Positions 2,160 to 12,580 of a stretch of DNA of 12,580 nucleotides are shown piece after piece. The notes beneath the pieces were generated by a model. The model was not told the DNA's origin. It ran no database searches and worked only from the letters and a program-made list of their open reading frames with translations. The position numbers and the translations under genes were made by a program. Position 1 is the first letter of the stretch. Each line of letters starts with the position of its first letter. This DNA comes from a virus: UHGV virus genome UHGV-1654074, one strand, 5' to 3'.

Positions 2160-2738
2160 ATGAAGGGGCTTGAGAATGCCATCCGCAATCTGAACAGCCT
2201 TGATACCCGTATGGTGCCACAGGCCAGCGCATGGGCGATAAACCGTGTGGCACAGAAAGCGGTCTCGGTTGCCACCCGGCAGGTTGCCGGGAATACCGTT
2301 GCGGGAGATAACCAGGTGAAAGGGATCCCCCTGAAACTGGTACGTCAGCGTGTCCGGGTGTTTAAAGCCAGTCCGTCAGGAAAAATGACGGCCAGGATCC
2401 GCGTTAACCGGGGCAATCTGCCTGCCATTAAGCTGGGGACAGCCCGGGTCAGACTGACCCGGCGTGGTGGAAAACTGCAGTACCGTGGCAGCGTGCTGAA
2501 GGTGGGTAAATATCTTTTCCGGGATGCGTTTATTCAGCAACTGGCGAATGGTCGCTGGCATGTGATGCGGCGTATTGATGGCAAAAATCGTTACCCCATT
2601 GATGTGGTGAAAATCCCTCTGTCCGTACCGCTGACACAGGCATTTGAAGATGCCCGCGACCGCATCATTGCTGCGGAAATGCCGAAACAGCTGGGGTATG
2701 CACTGAAACAACAACTGAGGTTATGGCTGACCCGATGA
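2160..2738 (+). CDS. Z: Tail completion protein Z homologue (192 aa, the same length as lambda gpZ).
   Basis: 192-aa ORF in the lambda Z position with GAGG upstream of the ATG. Its stop overlaps the U start in an ATGA motif, as in lambda. Confidence 0.8.
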   Translation: MKGLENAIRNLNSLDTRMVPQASAWAINRVAQKAVSVATRQVAGNTVAGDNQVKGIPLKLVRQRVRVFKASPSGKMTARIRVNRGNLPAIKLGTARVRLTRRGGKLQYRGSVLKVGKYLFRDAFIQQLANGRWHVMRRIDGKNRYPIDVVKIPLSVPLTQAFEDARDRIIAAEMPKQLGYALKQQLRLWLTR

Positions 2739-3136
2739 ACCGACATACACAAATCCGCCAGGTCGTACTGGCACGCCTTCGGGAGCAGTGTGGAGACAGC
2801 GCCACGTTTTTTGACGGGCTTCCGGCATTTGTTGATGCGCAGGAACTGCCTGCCGTGGCGGTGTGGCTGAGTGATGCTCAGTACACCGGAAAAATGACGG
2901 ATGAAGATGACTGGCAGGCTGTTCTGCATATTGCTGTCTTCATCCGGGCACAGGCACCGGATTCAGAGCTGGATATGTGGATGGAGAGCACCATTTTCCC
3001 GGCCCTGAATGATGTACCGGCACTTTCCGGACTCATCGACACCCTGATCCCACTCGGTTTTAACTATCAACGTGATAATGAGATGGCCACCTGGGCGATG
3101 GCGGAAATCACGTACCAGATCACGTACACGAATTAA
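2735..3136 (+). CDS. U: Tail terminator protein U homologue (133 aa from the ATG at 2735; alternative start at 2723).
   Basis: Translation (...ATFFDGLPAFVDAQELPAVAVWLSDAQYTGK..., DSELDMWMES..., ITYQITY) matches my recollection of lambda gpU (131 aa). ATGA start/stop overlap with Z. Confidence 0.85.
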   Translation: MNRHTQIRQVVLARLREQCGDSATFFDGLPAFVDAQELPAVAVWLSDAQYTGKMTDEDDWQAVLHIAVFIRAQAPDSELDMWMESTIFPALNDVPALSGLIDTLIPLGFNYQRDNEMATWAMAEITYQITYTN

Positions 3137-3146
3137 GGAGGTGGTA

Positions 3147-3890
3147 ATGACCACACCAAATCCACTGGCAAAAACGAAAGGTGCGGGAACGACGTTCTGG
3201 ATGTACACCGGCAAGGGCGATGCGTTTGCGAACCCTTTATCGGACACTGACTGGCTGCGTCTTGCGATGGTGAAGGATCTGCAACCTGGCGAAATGACCG
3301 CTGATGCAGAAGATGACACTTATCTCGATGATGAAGATGCAGACTGGAAAACGACAACCCAGGGGCAGAAATCCGTCGGTGATACTTCGGCGACGCTGGC
3401 CTGGCGTCCGGGTGACAGCGGACAGAAAAGACTGGTTCAGTTGTTCGACTCCGGTGAAGTCTGCGCGTTTCGAATCAAATATCCCAACGGTACTGTTGAT
3501 GTTTTCCGTGGCTGGCTGAGTTCACTGGGTAAAACCATTGCCTCAAAAGACGTGATGACCCGCACAGTGAAAATCAGCGGTGTGGGGCGTCCGTATCTGG
3601 CAGAGGAGGGCACTGAAACCGTGGGCGTTACCGGGCTGACGGTGGCACCGGCATCCGCCAGTGTCAATGTGGGAGCAACCACCACGCTGACCTTTACAGT
3701 AAAACCTGACGGAGCCAGTGACAAAGCGATCAGTGTGCATTCGACAGATCCACAGACAGCCACTGTGACCCTGAACGGGCTTGTGGCCACGGTGAAAGGC
3801 GTGAAGCAGGGCAGTGTCAGCATTGTGGGCATGACTTCTGACGGCGATTTTGTGGCAGTGGCTACGGTGGCTGTCAGCGCCGCAGGTTAA
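3147..3890 (+). CDS. V: Major tail tube protein V homologue (247 aa) with a C-terminal Ig-like (Big_2-type) domain.
   Basis: AAGGAGG at 3135-3141, 5 nt before the ATG at 3147 (the track start at 3072 is upstream and unlikely). MTTPNPLAKTKGAGTTFW..., YLDDEDADW and NGTVDVFRGW motifs match my recollection of lambda gpV (246 aa). The C-terminal ~90 aa are T/V/S-rich beta-strand-like sequence typical of Ig-like domains. Confidence 0.9.
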   Translation: MTTPNPLAKTKGAGTTFWMYTGKGDAFANPLSDTDWLRLAMVKDLQPGEMTADAEDDTYLDDEDADWKTTTQGQKSVGDTSATLAWRPGDSGQKRLVQLFDSGEVCAFRIKYPNGTVDVFRGWLSSLGKTIASKDVMTRTVKISGVGRPYLAEEGTETVGVTGLTVAPASASVNVGATTTLTFTVKPDGASDKAISVHSTDPQTATVTLNGLVATVKGVKQGSVSIVGMTSDGDFVAVATVAVSAAG

Positions 3891-3910: not shown

Positions 3911-3934
3911 GCCCCGGTTATCCGGGGCTTTTTT
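3911..3934 (+). terminator. Intrinsic (rho-independent) terminator-like hairpin between V and G: 7-bp GC stem GCCCCGG/CCGGGGC, TTAT loop, then T6.
   Basis: gccccggttatccggggctttttt read directly. The V-G spacer is 57 bp, against roughly 15 bp in lambda as I recall it. Confidence 0.6.
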
Positions 3935-3950
3935 GCAGGTGGAGAACATG

Positions 3951-4337
3951 ATGTTTCTGAAACAGGGCACGTTTAATCATGAAAAACAGTCCGTGGTGCT
4001 CAGTGAGCTGTCCGGGCTGCAGAGAATTGAATATCTGGCGTTTCTTCAGCAGCGAACGGCAAAGTTTGATGCCGAAGAGGGAGAACTGCCGGAGGCTGAA
4101 CGACAGATTGCTTTTCTGCGGATGGGGATGGATATCAATGCCTGGCTGGTTTCCCGCTCACTGTGGAATGCGGATCAGTCTAAGGATGTAGAGACGCTTT
4201 GCGCATCCGTTATTACAACATGGTCGTATGATGCCCTGGGTGCGGGGGCGGAGATGGTTCTGTCGCTGAGCGGTATGGGGGCCATTGAGAATGCCGGGGA
4301 TTTGGAGCATGAGGTGCTGACGCCGGAAAAGTCCTGA
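3951..4337 (+). CDS. G: Tail assembly chaperone G homologue (128 aa from the ATG at 3951; the ATG at 3948 is also possible).
   Basis: MFLKQGTFNHEKQSVVLSELSGLQRIEYLAF... resembles lambda gpG (MFLK..., LSELSALQRIEHLA..., 140 aa). GGAG at 3941-3944 is 6 nt before 3951. Confidence 0.85.
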   Translation: MFLKQGTFNHEKQSVVLSELSGLQRIEYLAFLQQRTAKFDAEEGELPEAERQIAFLRMGMDINAWLVSRSLWNADQSKDVETLCASVITTWSYDALGAGAEMVLSLSGMGAIENAGDLEHEVLTPEKS

Positions 4338-4675
4338 CGCGGGAAATGCAGTTTGTCATGCGGCTTGCCCGGGAGTTCCGGCGGGCAGACTGGCGGCGGA
4401 TGCTGTCGGAAATGTCGGCCACTGAGCTTGGTGAGTGGGGCGATTATTTCCGGATGCAGAGCTTTAGTGATGTGTGGATGGATGCGCAGTTTGCCTCGCT
4501 GAAGGCATTGATCGTGAGAATGGTGTCCGGCAGCAGTGATGCTGCGGTGGCTGATTTCAGCCTTTTACCGGAAGAGAACGGGATACCGGAGCGAACGGAC
4601 GAAGAACTGATGCATCTTGGGGAAGGTATTTCCGGAGGTGTGCGTTATGGACCAGATAGCCAACCTGGTCATTGA
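3951..4675 (+). CDS. G-T: G-T fusion tail assembly chaperone made by programmed -1 ribosomal frameshift near the end of G (candidate slip site G GAA AAG at 4325-4331); T portion 4331-4675. Predicted fusion about 241 aa.
   Basis: The frame of ORF 4346-4675 is -1 relative to G. That frame is open from 4313 (an in-frame TGA at 4310-4312 closes it upstream), so entry must occur within 4313-4334. The only heptamer there with a shifty A-site codon is G GAA AAG. The T part has no SD of its own. Conserved G-T arrangement of lambda. Confidence 0.75.
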
Positions 4676-7600
4676 TTTGGGGATTGATGCGGCAGAGTTT
4701 AAAAATGAAATTCCCCGTATCAAAAACCTTCTGAATGGTGCAGCCAGCGATGCAGAACGGTCTTCTGCCCGTATGCAGCGTTTTATGGAGCGTCAGACTC
4801 AGGCCGCCCGGCAGACAACGCAGGCGGCTTCTTCGGCTGCAACAGCCGCATCCGTCCATGCGCAGACGGTGGAGAAGAACGCACAGGCTCATGAACGCAT
4901 GGCCCGCGAGGTGGAGAAAACCCGCCAGCGCATGGAGGCACTGAGCCAGAAAATGCGCGAGGAACAGGCGCAGGCCATGGCTCTGGCGGAGGCTCAGGAT
5001 AAAGCGGCTGCTGCGTTTTATCGTCAGATTGACAGTGTGAAACAGGCCAGTGCGGGGCTGCAGGAATTACAGCGTATTCAGCAGCAGATCCGACAGGCCA
5101 GAAACAGTGGCGGGATTGGTCAGCAGGATTATCTGGCGCTGATTTCTGAGGTTACTGCGAAAACCCGTGTTCTTACACAGGCTGAGGAAGAGGCTACCCG
5201 ACAGAAAGTGGCGTTTATCCGTCAGCTTAAAGAGCAGGCAACCCGCCTGAATCTTTCATCTTCTGAGTTGCTTCGTGCTAAGGCAGCCCAGCTGGGGGTA
5301 AGCAGTGCTGCAGAAGTGTATATCCGCAAAATGGAGCAGGCAGGAAAAGCCACGCATTCGCTGGGTCTGAAAAGTGCAGCAGCCCGCCAGGAGATAGGCG
5401 TTCTGATAGGTGAACTGGCCCGCGGCAATTTAGGGGCGCTGAGGGGATCCGGGATAACGCTGGCTAACCGTGCCGGATGGATAGACACACTGATGTCACC
5501 GAAAGGCATGATGCTTGGCGGGGTTATTGGCGGTATTGCCGCGGCCGTCTATGGTCTGGGTAAAGCCTGGTATGACGGTCAGAAGGAGGGGGAAGAATTT
5601 AACCGCCAGTTGTCGCTGACGGGGCATTATGCCGGAGTCACTGCCGGGCAGCTGTGGACGCTCAGTCGTGCTATTTCCGGGAATGGTATCACGCAACATG
5701 CTGCAGCCGGTGCGCTGGCTCAGGTGGTGGGGAGTGGTGCATTTCGTGGAAACGATATCGGTATGGTGGCGAGAGCTGCCGCACAGATGGAGCGATCGGT
5801 TGGCCAGTCGGTCAGCGATACCATAAATCAGTTTAAGCGGCTGAAGGATGATCCTGTAAATGCCGCGAAGGCTCTGGACAATGAGCTGCATTTTCTTACT
5901 GCCACTCAGCTTGAGCAGATACGCGTCCTTGGGGAGCAGGGGCGGTCCAGTGATGCTGCACGGATAGCCATGTCTGCACTGGCAGAGGAAACCGGTCGGC
6001 GTACTGCGGATATTGATAATAACCTCAATGCGCTTGGCAGTACGCTGAAGTATCTGTCTGATTTGTGGAGTCGTTTCTGGGATGCGGCCATGAATATTGG
6101 TCGTGAAGACTCGCTGGATGAACAGATTGCCGCTTTACAGGAGAAAGTGTCGCGGGCGAAAAGACTCCCCTGGACGGCATCATCTTCTCAGGTTGAATAC
6201 GATCAGCAGCGTCTTAACGATCTTCAGGAGAAAAAACGCCAGAAGGATTTGCAGGATGCAAAAGAGCAGGCAGAGCGGAATTATCAGGAGCAACAGAAAC
6301 GCCGTAATGCTGAAAATGCTGCACTGAACCGGATGAATGAAACGGAAGCAGCACGACATCAGCGTGAAATTGCGCGTATTAATGCCATGCAGTACGCCGA
6401 TCAGGCTGTCAGGGATGCGGCGATACAACGTGAAAATGAACGTTACGAGAAAGCCCTGGCATCCGGTAAGAAAAAAACACGCGAAACCCGTAATGATGAG
6501 GCCACCCGGTTATTGCTGCAGTACAGTCAGCAACAGGCACAGGTGGAAGGACAGATTGCTGCTGCCAGACAGTCAGCAGGCATTGCCACGGAAAGGATGA
6601 CAGAAGCGCATAAACAGCTTCTGGCTCTGCAGCAGCGCATCAGCGACCTGGACGGGAAAAAACTGACGGCAGATGAAAAGAGTGTGCTGGCCCGTAAAGA
6701 TGAACTGATTCAGGCACTGACGCTGCTGGATGTAAAACAGCAGGAGCTTCAGAAACAGACGGCACTCAACGAGCTGAAGAAAAAAACAATTCAGCTGACC
6801 AGTCAACTGGCTGAAGAAGAGCGCGCTCAGCGTCAGCAACATGACCTGGATATCGCCACGGTGGGTATGGGTGATCAGCAGCGACAGCGATATCAGGTAC
6901 AACTGAGTCTTCGCCAGAAATACCAGCAACAGCTGGAGCAGTTGAGGCGGGATAGTGAGCAGAAAGGGACATATAACACGGATGACTACAGAAAGGCCGA
7001 GCAGGCGCTGACGGAGAGCCTGAACCGACAACTGAATGAGAATCGCCGTTACTGGCAACAGCTTGAAGTTGTGCAGGGTAACTGGAAAAACGGAGTCCTG
7101 CGTGCATTTCAGGATTTTACCGTGGATGCAGATAATACGGCAGAAACAGCAGAACAGGTGTTCTCGTCAGCCTTCAGCAACATGGGAAATGGCCTGGCAA
7201 CTTTTGTCACTACCGGCAAACTCAATTTCAAATCTTTCACCTCTTCTGTGCTGTCAGATATGGCGAAAATCCTGGCGCAGGCAACCATGATGAAATCGAT
7301 AAAAGGGATTGGCAGTGTACTGGGATTTGATCTCAGCAGCCTTTCCCTGAATGCCAATGGGGGGATTTATCAGTCTGCTGATTTGAGTCGTTACAGTGGC
7401 ACGGTGGTTAACCGTCCGACGTTTTTTGCTTTTGCAAAAGGCGCGGGTGTGATGGGGGAAGCTGGACCTGAAGCCATTCTGCCACTGCGTCGTGGTGCTG
7501 ACGGTAAGCTGGGGGTTGTGGCGGATATTGGTGGTTCAGGTATGGCGATGTTTGCCCCGCAGTACAACATCGAGATCAATAACGATGGCACGAACGGGCA

Positions 7601-7712
7601 GATAGGTCCGGCTGCCCTGAAGGTGGTTTATGACCTTGGGAAAAAAGCGGCAGCGGACTTTATGCAACAGCAGGCCCGTGATGGTGGTCGGTTAAGTGGA
7701 GCATATCGGTAA
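4647..7712 (+). CDS. H: Tail length tape measure protein H homologue (1021 aa).
   Basis: GGAGGTG precedes the ATG at 4647 (the track start at 4617 is upstream and less likely). Very long Q/E/R/K/A-rich helical protein with an internal hydrophobic segment (MMLGGVIGGIAAAVYGLG). The C-terminal region (...FAFAKGAGVMGEAGPEAILPLRRGADGKLGV...) is as I recall for lambda gpH. Stop overlaps the M start (TAATG). Confidence 0.9.
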   Translation: MDQIANLVIDLGIDAAEFKNEIPRIKNLLNGAASDAERSSARMQRFMERQTQAARQTTQAASSAATAASVHAQTVEKNAQAHERMAREVEKTRQRMEALSQKMREEQAQAMALAEAQDKAAAAFYRQIDSVKQASAGLQELQRIQQQIRQARNSGGIGQQDYLALISEVTAKTRVLTQAEEEATRQKVAFIRQLKEQATRLNLSSSELLRAKAAQLGVSSAAEVYIRKMEQAGKATHSLGLKSAAARQEIGVLIGELARGNLGALRGSGITLANRAGWIDTLMSPKGMMLGGVIGGIAAAVYGLGKAWYDGQKEGEEFNRQLSLTGHYAGVTAGQLWTLSRAISGNGITQHAAAGALAQVVGSGAFRGNDIGMVARAAAQMERSVGQSVSDTINQFKRLKDDPVNAAKALDNELHFLTATQLEQIRVLGEQGRSSDAARIAMSALAEETGRRTADIDNNLNALGSTLKYLSDLWSRFWDAAMNIGREDSLDEQIAALQEKVSRAKRLPWTASSSQVEYDQQRLNDLQEKKRQKDLQDAKEQAERNYQEQQKRRNAENAALNRMNETEAARHQREIARINAMQYADQAVRDAAIQRENERYEKALASGKKKTRETRNDEATRLLLQYSQQQAQVEGQIAAARQSAGIATERMTEAHKQLLALQQRISDLDGKKLTADEKSVLARKDELIQALTLLDVKQQELQKQTALNELKKKTIQLTSQLAEEERAQRQQHDLDIATVGMGDQQRQRYQVQLSLRQKYQQQLEQLRRDSEQKGTYNTDDYRKAEQALTESLNRQLNENRRYWQQLEVVQGNWKNGVLRAFQDFTVDADNTAETAEQVFSSAFSNMGNGLATFVTTGKLNFKSFTSSVLSDMAKILAQATMMKSIKGIGSVLGFDLSSLSLNANGGIYQSADLSRYSGTVVNRPTFFAFAKGAGVMGEAGPEAILPLRRGADGKLGVVADIGGSGMAMFAPQYNIEINNDGTNGQIGPAALKVVYDLGKKAAADFMQQQARDGGRLSGAYR

Positions 7713-8041
7713 TGGAGACGTTTCACTGGAAAGTGCGCCCGGATATGAATGTGGTATCAGAGCCGAAAGTGGTGACAGTGAAGCTGGGCGATGGTTATGA
7801 ACAGCGTCGTGCGGCGGGACTGAATAACCAGTTGTCGACTTACAGCGTGACGATACGTGTTCGTAAATGTGAACACCCATCTTTAAAAGCCTTTCTGGAA
7901 CGGCACGGTGGCGTCCGCGCATTTCAGTGGACGCCACCTTATGACTGGAAGCCGATCAGGGTGGTTTGTCGTAAATGGTCGGCAAGCGTGGGGGCGTTGT
8001 GGGTAACCATAACGGCAGATTTTGAACAGGTCGTGGCATAG
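7712..8041 (+). CDS. M: Minor tail protein M homologue (109 aa, the same length as lambda gpM).
   Basis: 109-aa ORF coupled to the H stop. M.TF.WKV.P ... GDGY.QR ... TYSV ... WTPPY.W ... AEFEQVV pattern as in lambda gpM. Confidence 0.9.
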   Translation: METFHWKVRPDMNVVSEPKVVTVKLGDGYEQRRAAGLNNQLSTYSVTIRVRKCEHPSLKAFLERHGGVRAFQWTPPYDWKPIRVVCRKWSASVGALWVTITADFEQVVA

Positions 8042-8050
8042 GAGTCTCTG

Positions 8051-8749
8051 ATGCAGGATATTCCACAGGAAACACATCATGAGACGACACGCCTCACTCA
8101 GTCAGCCCAGGTGGTGCTCTGGGAAATCGATCTGACAGTGGTCGGTGGAGAACGTTATTTTTTCTGTAATGAGCAGAACGAAAAAGGTGAGCCGGTCACC
8201 TGGCAGGGGCGACAGTATCAGGCGTATCCCATTCAGGGGACGGGATTTGAACTGAACGGCAAGGGCAGTGCTGCCCGTCCGACACTGACGGTTTCTAACC
8301 TGCACGGCATGGTCACCGGGATGGCGGAAGACCTGCAGAGTCTGGTCGGCGGAACGGTGGTCCGGCGTAAGGTTTACGCCCGTTTTCTGGATGCGGTGAA
8401 CTTCGTCAACGGAAACAGTGACGCCGATCCGGAGCAGGAGGTGATCAGCCGCTGGCGCATCGAGCAGTGCAGCGAACTGAGCGCGGTCAGTGCCTCCTTT
8501 GTACTGTCCACGCCGACGGAAACGGATGGCGCTGTTTTTCCGGGACGTATCATGCTGGCCAACACCTGCACCTGGACCTATCGCGGTGATGAGTGCGGTT
8601 ATCACGGTCCGGCGGTCGCGGATGAATATGATCAGCCGACGTCCGATATCACGAAGGATAAATGCAGCAAATGCCTGAGCGGCTGTAAGTTTCGCAATAA
8701 CGTCGGCAACTTTGGCGGCTTCCTTTCCATTAACAAACTTTCGCAGTAA
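8051..8749 (+). CDS. L: Minor tail protein L homologue (232 aa, the same length as lambda gpL) with a C-terminal cysteine cluster.
   Basis: AGGAG 6 nt upstream. Sequence (VVLWEIDLT..GGERYFFCNEQNEKGEPVTWQGRQYQ...) closely matches my recollection of lambda gpL. Five cysteines lie in CTWTYRGDECGYHGP...DKCSKCLSGCKF. Confidence 0.9.
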   Translation: MQDIPQETHHETTRLTQSAQVVLWEIDLTVVGGERYFFCNEQNEKGEPVTWQGRQYQAYPIQGTGFELNGKGSAARPTLTVSNLHGMVTGMAEDLQSLVGGTVVRRKVYARFLDAVNFVNGNSDADPEQEVISRWRIEQCSELSAVSASFVLSTPTETDGAVFPGRIMLANTCTWTYRGDECGYHGPAVADEYDQPTSDITKDKCSKCLSGCKFRNNVGNFGGFLSINKLSQ

Positions 8750-8753
8750 ACCC

Positions 8754-9497
8754 ATGACAGAGACAGAATCAGCGATTCTGGCGCACGCCCGGCGATGTGC
8801 GCCAGCGGAGTCGTGCGGCTTCGTGGTGAGAACACCGGAGGGGGAAAGATATTTTCCCTGCGTGAATATCTCCGGTGAGCCGGAGGAGTATTTCCGGATG
8901 TCGCCGGAGGACTGGCTGCAGGCAGAAATGCAGGGTGAGATTGTGGCGCTGGTCCACAGCCACCCCGGTGGTCTGCCCTGGCTGAGTGAGGCCGACAGGC
9001 GGCTGCAGGTGCAGAGTGATTTGCCGTGGTGGCTGGTCTGCCGGGGGGCGATTCACAAGTTCCGCTGTGTGCCGCATCTCACCGGGCGGCGCTTTGAGCA
9101 CGGGGTGACAGACTGTTATACGCTGTTCCGCGATGCCTATCATCTTGCAGGTATCGATTTGCCGGATTTTTACCGACATGATGACTGGTGGAAATCAGGT
9201 CAGAATCTCTATCTGGATAATCTGGAGGCCACAGGGCTGTATCAGGTGGCGTTGTCATCAGCACAACCGGGCGATGTGCTGCTGTGCTGTTTTGGTTCAT
9301 CGGTGCCGAATCATGCCGCCATTTACTGTGGTGACAGCGAGCTGCTGCACCATATTCCTGAACAACTGAGCAAACGAGAGAGGTACACCGACAAATGGCA
9401 GCGACGCACACACTCCCTCTGGCGTCACCGGGCATGGCACGCATCTGCCTTTACGGGGATTTACAACGATTTGGCCGCCGCATCGACCTTCGTGTGA
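8754..9497 (+). CDS. K: Tail assembly protein K homologue, 247 aa from the ATG at 8754: N-terminal JAB/MPN (JAMM) metalloprotease-like domain plus C-terminal NlpC/P60-type Cys/His domain. An internal start at 8898 would give a 199-aa form.
   Basis: The JAMM motif H-x-H-x7-S-x2-D is present as HSHPGGLPWLSEAD. Candidate NlpC/P60 Cys (GVTDCYTLF) and His (NHAAIY, HH) lie downstream. The ATG at 8754 is 5 nt after the L stop; the track start at 8712 lies inside L and is unlikely. The ATG at 8898 has GGAGGA 9 nt upstream. Confidence 0.85.
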   Translation: MTETESAILAHARRCAPAESCGFVVRTPEGERYFPCVNISGEPEEYFRMSPEDWLQAEMQGEIVALVHSHPGGLPWLSEADRRLQVQSDLPWWLVCRGAIHKFRCVPHLTGRRFEHGVTDCYTLFRDAYHLAGIDLPDFYRHDDWWKSGQNLYLDNLEATGLYQVALSSAQPGDVLLCCFGSSVPNHAAIYCGDSELLHHIPEQLSKRERYTDKWQRRTHSLWRHRAWHASAFTGIYNDLAAASTFV

Positions 9498-10066
9498 AAA
9501 CGGGGGCTGAAGCCATTCGGGCGCTGGCCACACAGCTCCCGGCGTTTCGTCAGAAACTGAGCGACGGCTGGTATCAGGTACGGATTGCCGGGCAGGATGT
9601 CAGCACGTCCGGATTAACGGCGCAGTTACATGAGACTCTGCCTGATGGCGCTGTGATTCATATTGTTCCCAGAGTCGCCGGGGCCAAGTCAGGGGGTGTA
9701 TTCCAGATTGTCCTGGGAGCAGCCGCCATTGCCGGATCATTCTTTACCGCCGGAGCCACCCTTGCAGCATGGGGGGCAGCCATTGGGGCCGGTGGTATGA
9801 CCGGTATCCTGTTTTCTCTCGGTGCCAGTATGGTGCTCGGTGGTGTGGCGCAGATGCTGGCACCGAAAGCCCGGACGCCCACAGCGACCAGCACGGATAA
9901 CGGTAAGCAGAACACGTATTTCTCTTCACTGGATAACATGGTTGCCCAGGGCAATGTTCTGCCTGTTCTGTACGGTGAAATGCGCGTGGGGTCACGCGTG
10001 GTTTCTCAGGAGATCAGCACGGCAGACGAAGGGGACGGTGGTCAGGTTGTGGTGATTGGTCGCTGA
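9395..10066 (+). CDS. I: Tail assembly protein I homologue (223 aa, the same length as lambda gpI); overlaps the 3' end of K by 103 nt in a different frame.
   Basis: MAATHTLPLASPGMARICLYGDLQRFGRRIDLRVKTGAEAIRALATQLPAFRQ... matches my recollection of lambda gpI. The hydrophobic Gly/Ala-rich C-terminal half is typical. Confidence 0.85.
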   Translation: MAATHTLPLASPGMARICLYGDLQRFGRRIDLRVKTGAEAIRALATQLPAFRQKLSDGWYQVRIAGQDVSTSGLTAQLHETLPDGAVIHIVPRVAGAKSGGVFQIVLGAAAIAGSFFTAGATLAAWGAAIGAGGMTGILFSLGASMVLGGVAQMLAPKARTPTATSTDNGKQNTYFSSLDNMVAQGNVLPVLYGEMRVGSRVVSQEISTADEGDGGQVVVIGR

Positions 10067-10085
10067 TGCAAAATGTTTTATGTGA

Positions 10086-10105
10086 AACCGCCTGCGGGCG
10101 GTTTT
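10086..10105 (+). terminator. Terminator-like hairpin in the I-J spacer: stem AACCGCC/GGCGGTT, loop TGCG, followed by a T-rich tract.
   Basis: aaccgcctgcgggcggttttgtcgttt read directly; it lies 20 nt after the I stop and 22 nt before the J ATG. Confidence 0.4.
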
Positions 10106-10123
10106 GTCGTTTATGGAGCGTGA

Positions 10124-12580
<2,457 letters not shown>

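Follow-up and report, generated by a model that had tools for sequence, protein, structure and literature searches.

Relation to known tape measure proteins

The tail tube of phage lambda consists of 32 gpV rings, and residues 818-842 of its 853-residue tape measure protein gpH (length as in J02459; solved structure, 8iyk) form a three-helix coiled coil within the lumen of the tail tip (PMC10721106). Closer in sequence to the protein analysed here are the annotated tape measure proteins of mEp460, mEp460_ev081, Tritos and Ayreon, each of 1021 aa, and that of cdtI, the gene for which is 9 nt (3 codons) shorter. Phage phi80 encodes a more distant tape measure protein (gp15/16, 1045 aa), and the Salmonella prophages Gifsy-1, Gifsy-2 and Fels-1, from another host genus, carry a related segment.

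The window, i.e. the whole 12,580-nt stretch of virus genome UHGV-1654074 that was analysed, matches phage mEp460_ev081 at 99.8% identity. The annotated tape measure gene of that phage likewise shows 99.8% nucleotide identity to the window gene; for those of mEp460, Tritos and Ayreon the values are 99-99.8%. With cdtI included, identity is 96-99.8% over 3066 nt, the neighbouring genes are the same, and few residues are substituted (in the case of Tritos, 13 of 1021). Annotations of this protein exist for mEp460, cdtI, Tritos and Ayreon, and E. coli prophages very commonly carry it; the gene is an ordinary one, already known and annotated, for the tape measure of a lambdoid phage of the mEp460/phi80 type. 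For annotation the finding matters little, since several phage genomes already give the gene its correct name and its 1021 aa are average for the family. Overall, we consider it likely (probability roughly 0.8) that the protein is an intact member of the lambda gpH family, of the mEp460/cdtI/Tritos type, and that it is a long form bearing a helical module which would most likely be a ruler extension that lengthens the tail.

The phi80 protein has the same architecture, including the module; it is 38% identical to the window protein and colinear with it from residue 3 to about residue 945, the alignment being gap-free across residues 3-480, but differs in having several indels in the middle, in its C-terminal ~80 aa, which are unaligned in BLASTP, and in being accompanied by its own tip genes. 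The likeness to Gifsy-1, Gifsy-2 and Fels-1 covers the module only, over which identity is 63-68%. Lambda gpH, by contrast, lacks the ~160-aa module; it is 25% identical to the window protein overall, and has 56 aa before TMP_2 compared with 227, yet shares the N-terminal ~55 aa, TMP_2 with the hydrophobic segment, the C-terminal domains and the gene position.

An intact gene of the lambda gpH family

The Pfam profiles PF06791, PF09718 and PF24622 all score above their cut-offs, TMP_2 (PF06791) with 168.1 bits against a gathering cut-off of 30.2 (E=2.7e-49) and Tape_meas_lam_C (PF09718) with 78.3 bits against 23 (E=4.7e-22); PF24622 (TMP_4) scores in the window protein and not in lambda gpH. 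TIGR01541 matches residues 656-981 with 285.8 bits (cut-off 104.75), and the top sequence match in the PDB is the solved lambda gpH (8iyk, E=2e-48). Residues 2-56 align with lambda 3-57 at 33% identity (E=4e-8), and this region contains the motif M.QI.DLVI.L..D...F, common to many family members. The window protein thus has the TMP_2 domain, the C-terminal profiles, the gene order and, at the sequence level, the C-terminal tip helix of the lambda type, together with the helical module of ~160 aa, located after the N-terminal ~55 aa and ahead of TMP_2, that marks the long-N (phi80/Gifsy/mEp460) subtype. The profiles, the gene order and the annotated relatives all agree with the original prediction in identifying a tape measure protein.

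That prediction had also proposed that a hydrophobic segment and a lambda-like C-terminal region are retained, as proved to be the case. The hydrophobic segment, called by Kyte-Doolittle analysis (19-residue window above 1.4), is the counterpart of lambda gpH 113-138 and aligns to lambda 122-141; 36 of the C-terminal 69 residues are identical to lambda 785-853, the underlying DNA including a 61-bp island (7574-7634) of ~90% nucleotide identity to lambda.

The reading frame encodes 1021 aa (1022 codons including the stop), an excess of 168 aa (19.7%) over lambda gpH, as had been predicted. The possibility that the excess is an artefact of annotation or sequencing, such as a mis-called start or a frameshift joining two ORFs, had been named as grounds for dismissing it, and can be regarded as negligible. 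The ATG at 4647 has a GGAGG ribosome-binding site 8 nt upstream, whereas starting further upstream, at the TTG at 4617, would lengthen the protein by just 10 residues without homology; since lambda gpH residue 3 pairs with residue 2, the start is also backed by homology. The gene contains no frameshift; relatives of equal length fall in clusters with 10,008 and 3,366 member sequences. With homology to gpH extending from residue 2 to the final residue, thousands of independent sequences and several phage genomes sharing the length, and the phi80 protein colinear, we rejected an artefact, in favour of which nothing was found.

Table 1. Coordinates of the tape measure gene, its parts and the adjoining tail genes in the window.
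Feature	Position	Strand	Basis
Major tail tube protein V, 247 aa	3147..3890	+	55% identity to ev207 V (246 aa); 96% to Tritos V
G-like tail assembly chaperone, 129 aa	3948..4337	+	34% identity to G of lambda-like ev207; PHROG 42
T reading frame, -1 relative to G	4313..4675	+	Frame analysis; 38% identity to ev207 T; PHROG 39
Tail tape measure protein gene, lambda H homologue	4647..7712	+	ORF; Pfam, TIGR01541; nucleotide identity to annotated tape measure genes
Conserved N-terminal ~55 aa, common to lambda gpH	4647..4811	+	Alignment to lambda gpH and family motif
N-proximal helical module (putative extension), residues ~57-214	4815..5288	+	Alignment, composition, AlphaFold2, relatives
Predicted helix break NSGGI within the module, residues 154-158	5106..5120	+	AlphaFold2 secondary structure
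TMP_2 domain, residues 228-426	5328..5924	+	PF06791
Hydrophobic glycine-rich segment, residues 286-306	5502..5564	+	Kyte-Doolittle; lambda alignment
Q/E/R/K-rich helical middle, residues 427-810, including TMP_4 at 616-693	5925..7076	+	Pfam coordinates, global alignment
Tape_meas_lam_C domain, residues 811-885	7077..7301	+	PF09718
Lambda-like C-terminal 69 aa, including counterpart of gpH tail-tip helix	7503..7709	+	Identity to lambda
M-like distal tail protein, 109 aa	7712..8041	+	56% identity to ev207 M, same length
L	8051-8749		Gene order

Position of the additional length

The original prediction placed the extra residues in the Q/E/R-rich helical middle; alignment and Pfam landmarks instead point to the region near the N terminus. 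In the global alignment, the window protein has 242 aa (residues 54-295) where lambda has 72 (residues 55-126), an excess of 170, whereas residues 296-1021 compared with lambda 127-853 show a net change of -1. TMP_2 starts at residue 228 compared with 54 in lambda, and Tape_meas_lam_C at 811 compared with 627, the spacer between the two domains, i.e. the helical middle, being nearly the same length in both proteins (384 aa compared with 370 aa). Essentially all of the extra length thus lies in the N-proximal module, upstream of the hydrophobic/TMP_2 region.

Residues 57-227 are rich in alanine (20%), glutamine (13%), glutamate (9%) and arginine (9%), there are long stretches without glycine or proline at 32-136 and 159-216, and AlphaFold2 predicts helices at 15-153 and 159-200. 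Further along, residues 330-460 are modelled with pLDDT above 90 as several short helices, which we read as a compact domain rather than a rod. The AlphaFold2 models are of the monomer and have little bearing on a trimer confined in the tube; a Foldseek comparison of the full-length model with the PDB gave no significant match, only generic long-helix proteins.

Internal duplication was considered as an origin of the module and rejected, the match of residues 54-228 to the rest of the protein by BLASTP and Smith-Waterman being at shuffle level (67, compared with a mean of 67). The same residues gave a borderline score against the lambda middle (105, with a shuffle maximum of 104), probably a composition effect. 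No tandem repeats were found in the DNA, and a heptad periodicity scan of the protein gave no informative signal.

Age and length variation of the module

The module is common to phi80, Gifsy-1/2 and Fels-1, is covered by positions 26-235 of the PHROG 24 profile, and aligns, with common motifs, across relatives of 25-48% identity. Its presence in phi80, Gifsy-1/2 and Fels-1 shows that it is not a recent insertion; it is both conserved and old. Over 98 diverged full-length representatives, total length follows 1.03 x (pre-TMP_2 length) + 805 (r = 0.95), and the pre-TMP_2 segment accounts for 88% of the length variance. The other parts are comparatively constant, with TMP_2 at 198 ± 3 aa, the middle at about 385 ± 22-24 aa and the C-terminal part having an SD of 13. 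Within the family as surveyed, which drew on the 150 best matches to a long query and is thus biased toward long forms, 1021 aa is typical and lambda lies at the short extreme. The module is, on these alignments, the length-variable part of the whole lambda gpH family, and for engineering of tail length the N-proximal helical segment, holding almost all of the family's length variation, would be the place to cut.

Natural in-frame deletions in relatives of at least 91% identity affect residues 53-63, 85-110, 140-143, 196-229, 200-246, 216-238, 378-418 and 615-682; they cluster at residues 53-246, the sites being read from prophage sequences alone and not implying tail production.

Implications for tail length

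By analogy with lambda, a trimer of the protein would lie in the lumen of the tube, with gpI, gpL and gpJ anchoring its C terminus in the tip complex, and its N-terminal end would set the point at which tube polymerisation stops. Given such an anchored trimer, with the N-terminal end setting the stop, the N-proximal module would most likely act as an extension of the ruler, giving a tail longer than that of lambda. Tails of phi80 are reported to be somewhat longer than those of lambda, with the determinant said to map near gene H. Katsura reportedly found in 1987 that, within single phages, tail length scales with tape measure length. Were the ruler strictly proportional, with the full 1021-aa chain extended, the tail would have ~38 rings and be ~1.17-1.2 times as long as that of lambda (roughly 175-185 nm), in line with the original prediction of about 1.2 times; uniform scaling at 0.15 nm per residue, the rule applied in PMC9928086, predicts a gain of ~25 nm and ~38 tube rings compared with 32. 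Besides the established within-phage scaling and the use of that rule, strict proportionality has in its favour that the family's length variation sits in one simple helical segment, as would be expected of an element that tunes tail length.

The lengths published for close relatives run counter to this expectation. According to PMC9928086, the tail of Tritos, the 1021-aa tape measure protein of which is identical to that of the window at 1008 of 1021 residues without gaps, is 163.5 ± 2.4 nm long, whereas that of Perceval, which has a tape measure gene of 2562 nt (853 aa) with 98.5% DNA identity to lambda H, is 156.8 ± 5.3 nm by the same method in the same study. The difference of 6.7 nm (ratio 1.04) comes from the sole same-study comparison found, in which the two phages serve as proxies for the window phage and lambda, and it falls well short of a factor of 1.2; from one laboratory and method, and with such SDs, a gain of ~25 nm would be obvious. 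A rough figure of about 120 nm for Ayreon (PMC5764929), with a tape measure gene of 98.8% DNA identity to that of the window, also argues against proportionality, as does the variation of the ratio between phages, a 259-nm tail for a 1525-aa protein corresponding to 0.17 nm per residue in PMC9928086. Papers on phi458, FhuA phages, Tai systems and LLS gave no tail lengths. Under-measurement of Tritos would reconcile the values with strict proportionality, and because its stock reached only 1.4e7 PFU/mL (with a capsid SD of 9.6 nm), and the passages of PMC9928086 used here give no particle number, a proportional tail is disfavoured rather than excluded; we regard strict proportionality as rather unlikely. 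At the least, a 4% difference between phages with 1021-aa and 853-aa proteins in one study counsels caution in inferring tail length from gene length.

A small difference would also be expected if the module did not measure at all. The predicted break at NSGGI is a possible hairpin turn, at which the chain could fold back such that the helix at 15-153 runs down beside residues 159 onward; the effective ruler would then be ~156-1021 (866 aa), close to the 853 aa of lambda, tails would be nearly equal in length, and the module would have its role elsewhere, e.g. in chaperone binding or after ejection. The measured ratio of 1.04 is compatible with such an arrangement, under which a ruler of 866 rather than 853 aa should make the tail about 2 nm longer. 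So too is the AlphaFold2 model of a 151-aa fragment (pTM 0.55), in which the best confidence of the N-terminal region flanks the break (pLDDT >90 for residues 139-179), as is, at the level of prophage sequence, the clustering of deletions described above. The best low-rmsd Foldseek matches of the fragment are antiparallel helical hairpins (e.g. ESCRT-I, 0.6-1.4 Å over 57-63 residues, and gp41, 2.0 Å over 77), but none is significant (E above 0.4), and monomer AlphaFold2 tends to fold back long helices that truly form coiled coils. Moreover, the tube lumen would need room for six helices, and the ~55 N-terminal residues that are conserved in lambda would come to lie ~20 nm below the top, unlike in lambda. 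A folded-back module is thus quite improbable; were it to occur, total tape measure length would predict tail length poorly across homologues, and the most variable segment of the family would serve another purpose.

With a ruler extension preferred, we put at about even the odds that the tail is 3-15% longer than a lambda-type tail; a gain of 15% or more is appreciably less probable, and a tail indistinguishable in length from the lambda type is improbable.

Neighbouring tail genes

As in lambda, the genes lie in the order V, G, T (-1 frame), H, M, L, and the tip genes L, K, I and J match their counterparts in the lambda-like phage ev207 at 93-98% DNA identity. The view that the flanking genes are lambda-sized holds for M (109 aa in both), and V is close as well (247 compared with 246 aa), but it holds only roughly for G and T, G having 129 aa compared with 140 in lambda and the predicted G-T fusion 242 compared with 279. 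The sole candidate slip site for the fusion is G_GAA_AAG at 4325-4331, and the T frame overlaps the start of the tape measure gene by 29 nt.

The tape measure gene and its surroundings

At 1021 aa against 853 aa for lambda gpH, the tape measure protein (TMP) of the window is longer than its lambda counterpart to the extent originally predicted (about 20%). A mis-called start or a frameshift as the source of this length was considered and is excluded by a GGAGG motif 8 nt 5' of the ATG, by alignment with gpH beginning at residue 2, and by proteins of equal length in clusters of 10,008 and 3,366 sequences that come chiefly from E. coli. The window covers the head-to-tail-tip portion of an mEp460-type lambdoid phage, with the gene order of mEp460-type records and of lambda (see table). 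The TMP gene (3066 nt) has 99.8% nucleotide identity with the annotated tape measure gene of mEp460_ev081, and 99.1, 98.9, 98.8 and 96.3% with those of the phages mEp460, Tritos, Ayreon and cdtI, respectively. TMP is called at its correct size and belongs to a common phage type in which this tape measure protein is already annotated.

Two database matches deserve comment. Entry P0001 (1150 aa) is 100% identical across all 1021 residues and carries 129 additional residues past the normal stop; it is probably a gene call reading through the TGA. In Aeromonas phage AP1 (MT713136), 238 bp (L005, 2928-3165) are 99.2% identical to window positions 6381-6618, within the TMP gene; the match falls in a part of the AP1 record without annotation, toward its end, adjoining tRNA genes, and is probably an assembly chimera.

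Features of the window, with nucleotide positions
Feature	Position	Product	Remark
Capsid gene			truncated by window start; small head and neck genes follow
Z-like	2160-2738
U-like	2723-3136
V	3147-3890	247 aa
V-G hairpin	3911-3934		GCCCCGG-TTAT-CCGGGGC, then T6
G	3948-4337	129 aa
G-to-T frameshift region	4313-4337		22 nt, -1 frameshift
Candidate slip site	4325-4331		G_GAA_AAG
T frame	up to 4675
TMP	4647-7712	1021 aa	ATG at 4647, stop at 7710-7712
Island like lambda H	7574-7634		61 bp
M	7712-8041	109 aa
Mosaic joint	8050-8200		at L start; ev207-like side 8051-12532
L	8051-8749
K, then I			between L and J
J	10127 to window end

Location of the additional residues

The original prediction had placed the extra length in the Q/E/R-rich helical middle; global alignment with gpH and Pfam landmarks put it close to the N terminus instead. 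TMP residues 54-295 (242 aa) lie opposite lambda residues 55-126 (72 aa), a surplus of 170, and residues 296-1021 (726 aa) lie opposite 127-853 (727 aa). TMP_2 (PF06791) spans residues 228-426 in TMP versus 54-256 in lambda, Tape_meas_lam_C (PF09718) 811-885 versus 627-701, and the spacer between them is 384 aa versus 370 aa. The hydrophobic segment (286-306; lambda 113-138) and the lambda-like C-terminal region (last 69 aa, 52% identical to lambda) are retained, as had been predicted. Residues 57-227 are rich in A (20%), Q (13%), E (9%) and R (9%), stretches 32-136 and 159-216 are free of G and P, and AlphaFold2 predicts helices at 15-153 and 159-200, separated by a break at NSGGI (154-158). 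Searches for internal duplication in TMP and for DNA tandem repeats in its gene found none.

Distribution of the N-proximal module

Judged by sequence comparison, the helical extension (the module, residues ~57-214) is old and widely shared, with lambda as the outlier. The phi80 tape measure (1045 aa) is colinear with TMP at 38% identity, without gaps across residues 3-480; the module recurs in Gifsy-1, Gifsy-2 and Fels-1 (63-68% identity) and in mEp043, mEp213, LLS and some Klebsiella, Enterobacter and Aeromonas phages (45-50%), and lies within the span of the main PHROG tape measure profile.

Among 1.84 billion representative proteins, 13,499 family members were found (E <= 1e-3), and lengths were surveyed in the 98 of the best 150 that were full length with both landmarks. 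Among these, total length follows 1.03 x (residues before TMP_2) + 805 (r = 0.95); the segment before TMP_2 (33-371 aa) accounts for 88% of the length variance, with TMP_2 at 198 +/- 3 aa, the middle at ~385 +/- 22 aa and the C-terminal part having an SD of 13. The median total length is ~990 aa in this list, which is ordered by likeness to the long TMP query and hence skewed toward long forms; within it, the 56 aa before TMP_2 in lambda fall near the 5th percentile, and the 227 aa in TMP are typical. The length of this segment is multimodal in the same 98 proteins (peaks near 45, 110, 190-230 and 320 aa), a hint that blocks of ~100 aa are gained or lost stepwise. In-frame deletions in relatives at least 90% identical cluster N-proximally (residues 53-63, 85-110, 196-229, 200-246 and 216-238); the relatives concerned (P0009, P0011, P0012, P0014, P0016, P0018, P0019 and P0107) come from prophages that may not be functional.

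Implications for tail length

In the lambda tail, a gpH oligomer lies inside 32 hexameric gpV rings, and the C-terminal helix of gpH (818-842) contributes to a three-helix coiled coil within the lumen of the tip, where gpI supports it (PMC10721106). The tip genes of the window resemble those of lambda, L, K, I and J being 93-98% identical in DNA to their counterparts in the lambda-like phage ev207; given this and the conserved C-terminal 69 aa, TMP is expected to be anchored at the tip as in lambda. Its N-terminal end would then mark the stopping point of tube growth, and the module just behind that end would be a natural site for ruler extension. The 61-bp island, with ~90% nucleotide identity to lambda H within an otherwise diverged gene, falls in the stretch for the last 69 aa and codes for INNDGTNGQIGPAALK, at the beginning of the helix located in the lambda tip. 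Unlike L, K, I and J, the genes from Z through M, including that for TMP, are at most ~66% identical in nucleotides to ev207.

Uniform scaling (1021/853 x 32) gives ~38 rings; with 0.15 nm per residue, the tail would gain 25 nm. In PMC9928086, tails were measured by one method for Tritos (163.5 +/- 2.4 nm) and for Perceval (156.8 +/- 5.3 nm), a difference of 6.7 nm and a ratio of 1.04. The Tritos TMP, also of 1021 aa, is identical to ours at 1008 of 1021 residues without gaps, and its V at 238 of 247; the Perceval TMP gene (2562 nt, 853 aa) shares 98.5% identity with lambda H. For Tritos, the stock had a low titre (1.4e7 PFU/mL), the SD in capsid diameter was large, and no particle number was found. 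PMC9928086 also reports a 259-nm tail for a 1525-aa tape measure (0.17 nm/aa); the spread between phages in this ratio is about as large as the effect in question. The tail of Ayreon was put at ~120 nm, a clearly rough value (PMC5764929). A longer tail is reasonable in principle, but the predicted magnitude of about 1.2x lambda is unsupported by the one comparable measurement and, given the ratio of 1.04, the dilute Tritos sample and the variation in nm/aa, is disfavoured, not disproved.

A possible reason for the shortfall would be a reversal of the chain at about residue 156, leaving a measuring part of 866 aa, near the 853 of lambda. The highest AlphaFold2 confidence in the N-terminal region flanks the NSGGI break on either side, a 151-aa fragment has pLDDT >90 for residues corresponding to 139-179 (pTM 0.55), antiparallel helical hairpins are the structures that match this fragment best locally, and the TMP_2 core (330-460; pLDDT >90, several short helices) is modelled as what may be a compact domain, not a rod. 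However, the hairpin matches are without significance and monomer models often fold back helices that in reality form trimers, and we consider such a reversal unlikely.

Expression signals and flanking genes

A strong terminator-like hairpin separates V and G; the mEp460 record, too, lists it as a terminator, and it may reduce how strongly G, T and the TMP gene are expressed relative to V. A -1 shift from G to T has to fall within 22 nt, and this region contains a sole A-rich candidate slip site, which is non-canonical, whereas that of lambda (G_GGA_AAG) is a canonical X_XXY_YYZ. The flanking G/T and M had been described as lambda-sized, which holds for M (109 aa in both) and only roughly for G (140 aa in lambda); the predicted G-T fusion would be 242 aa, versus 279 in lambda. 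V is close in size to its counterpart (246 aa in lambda).
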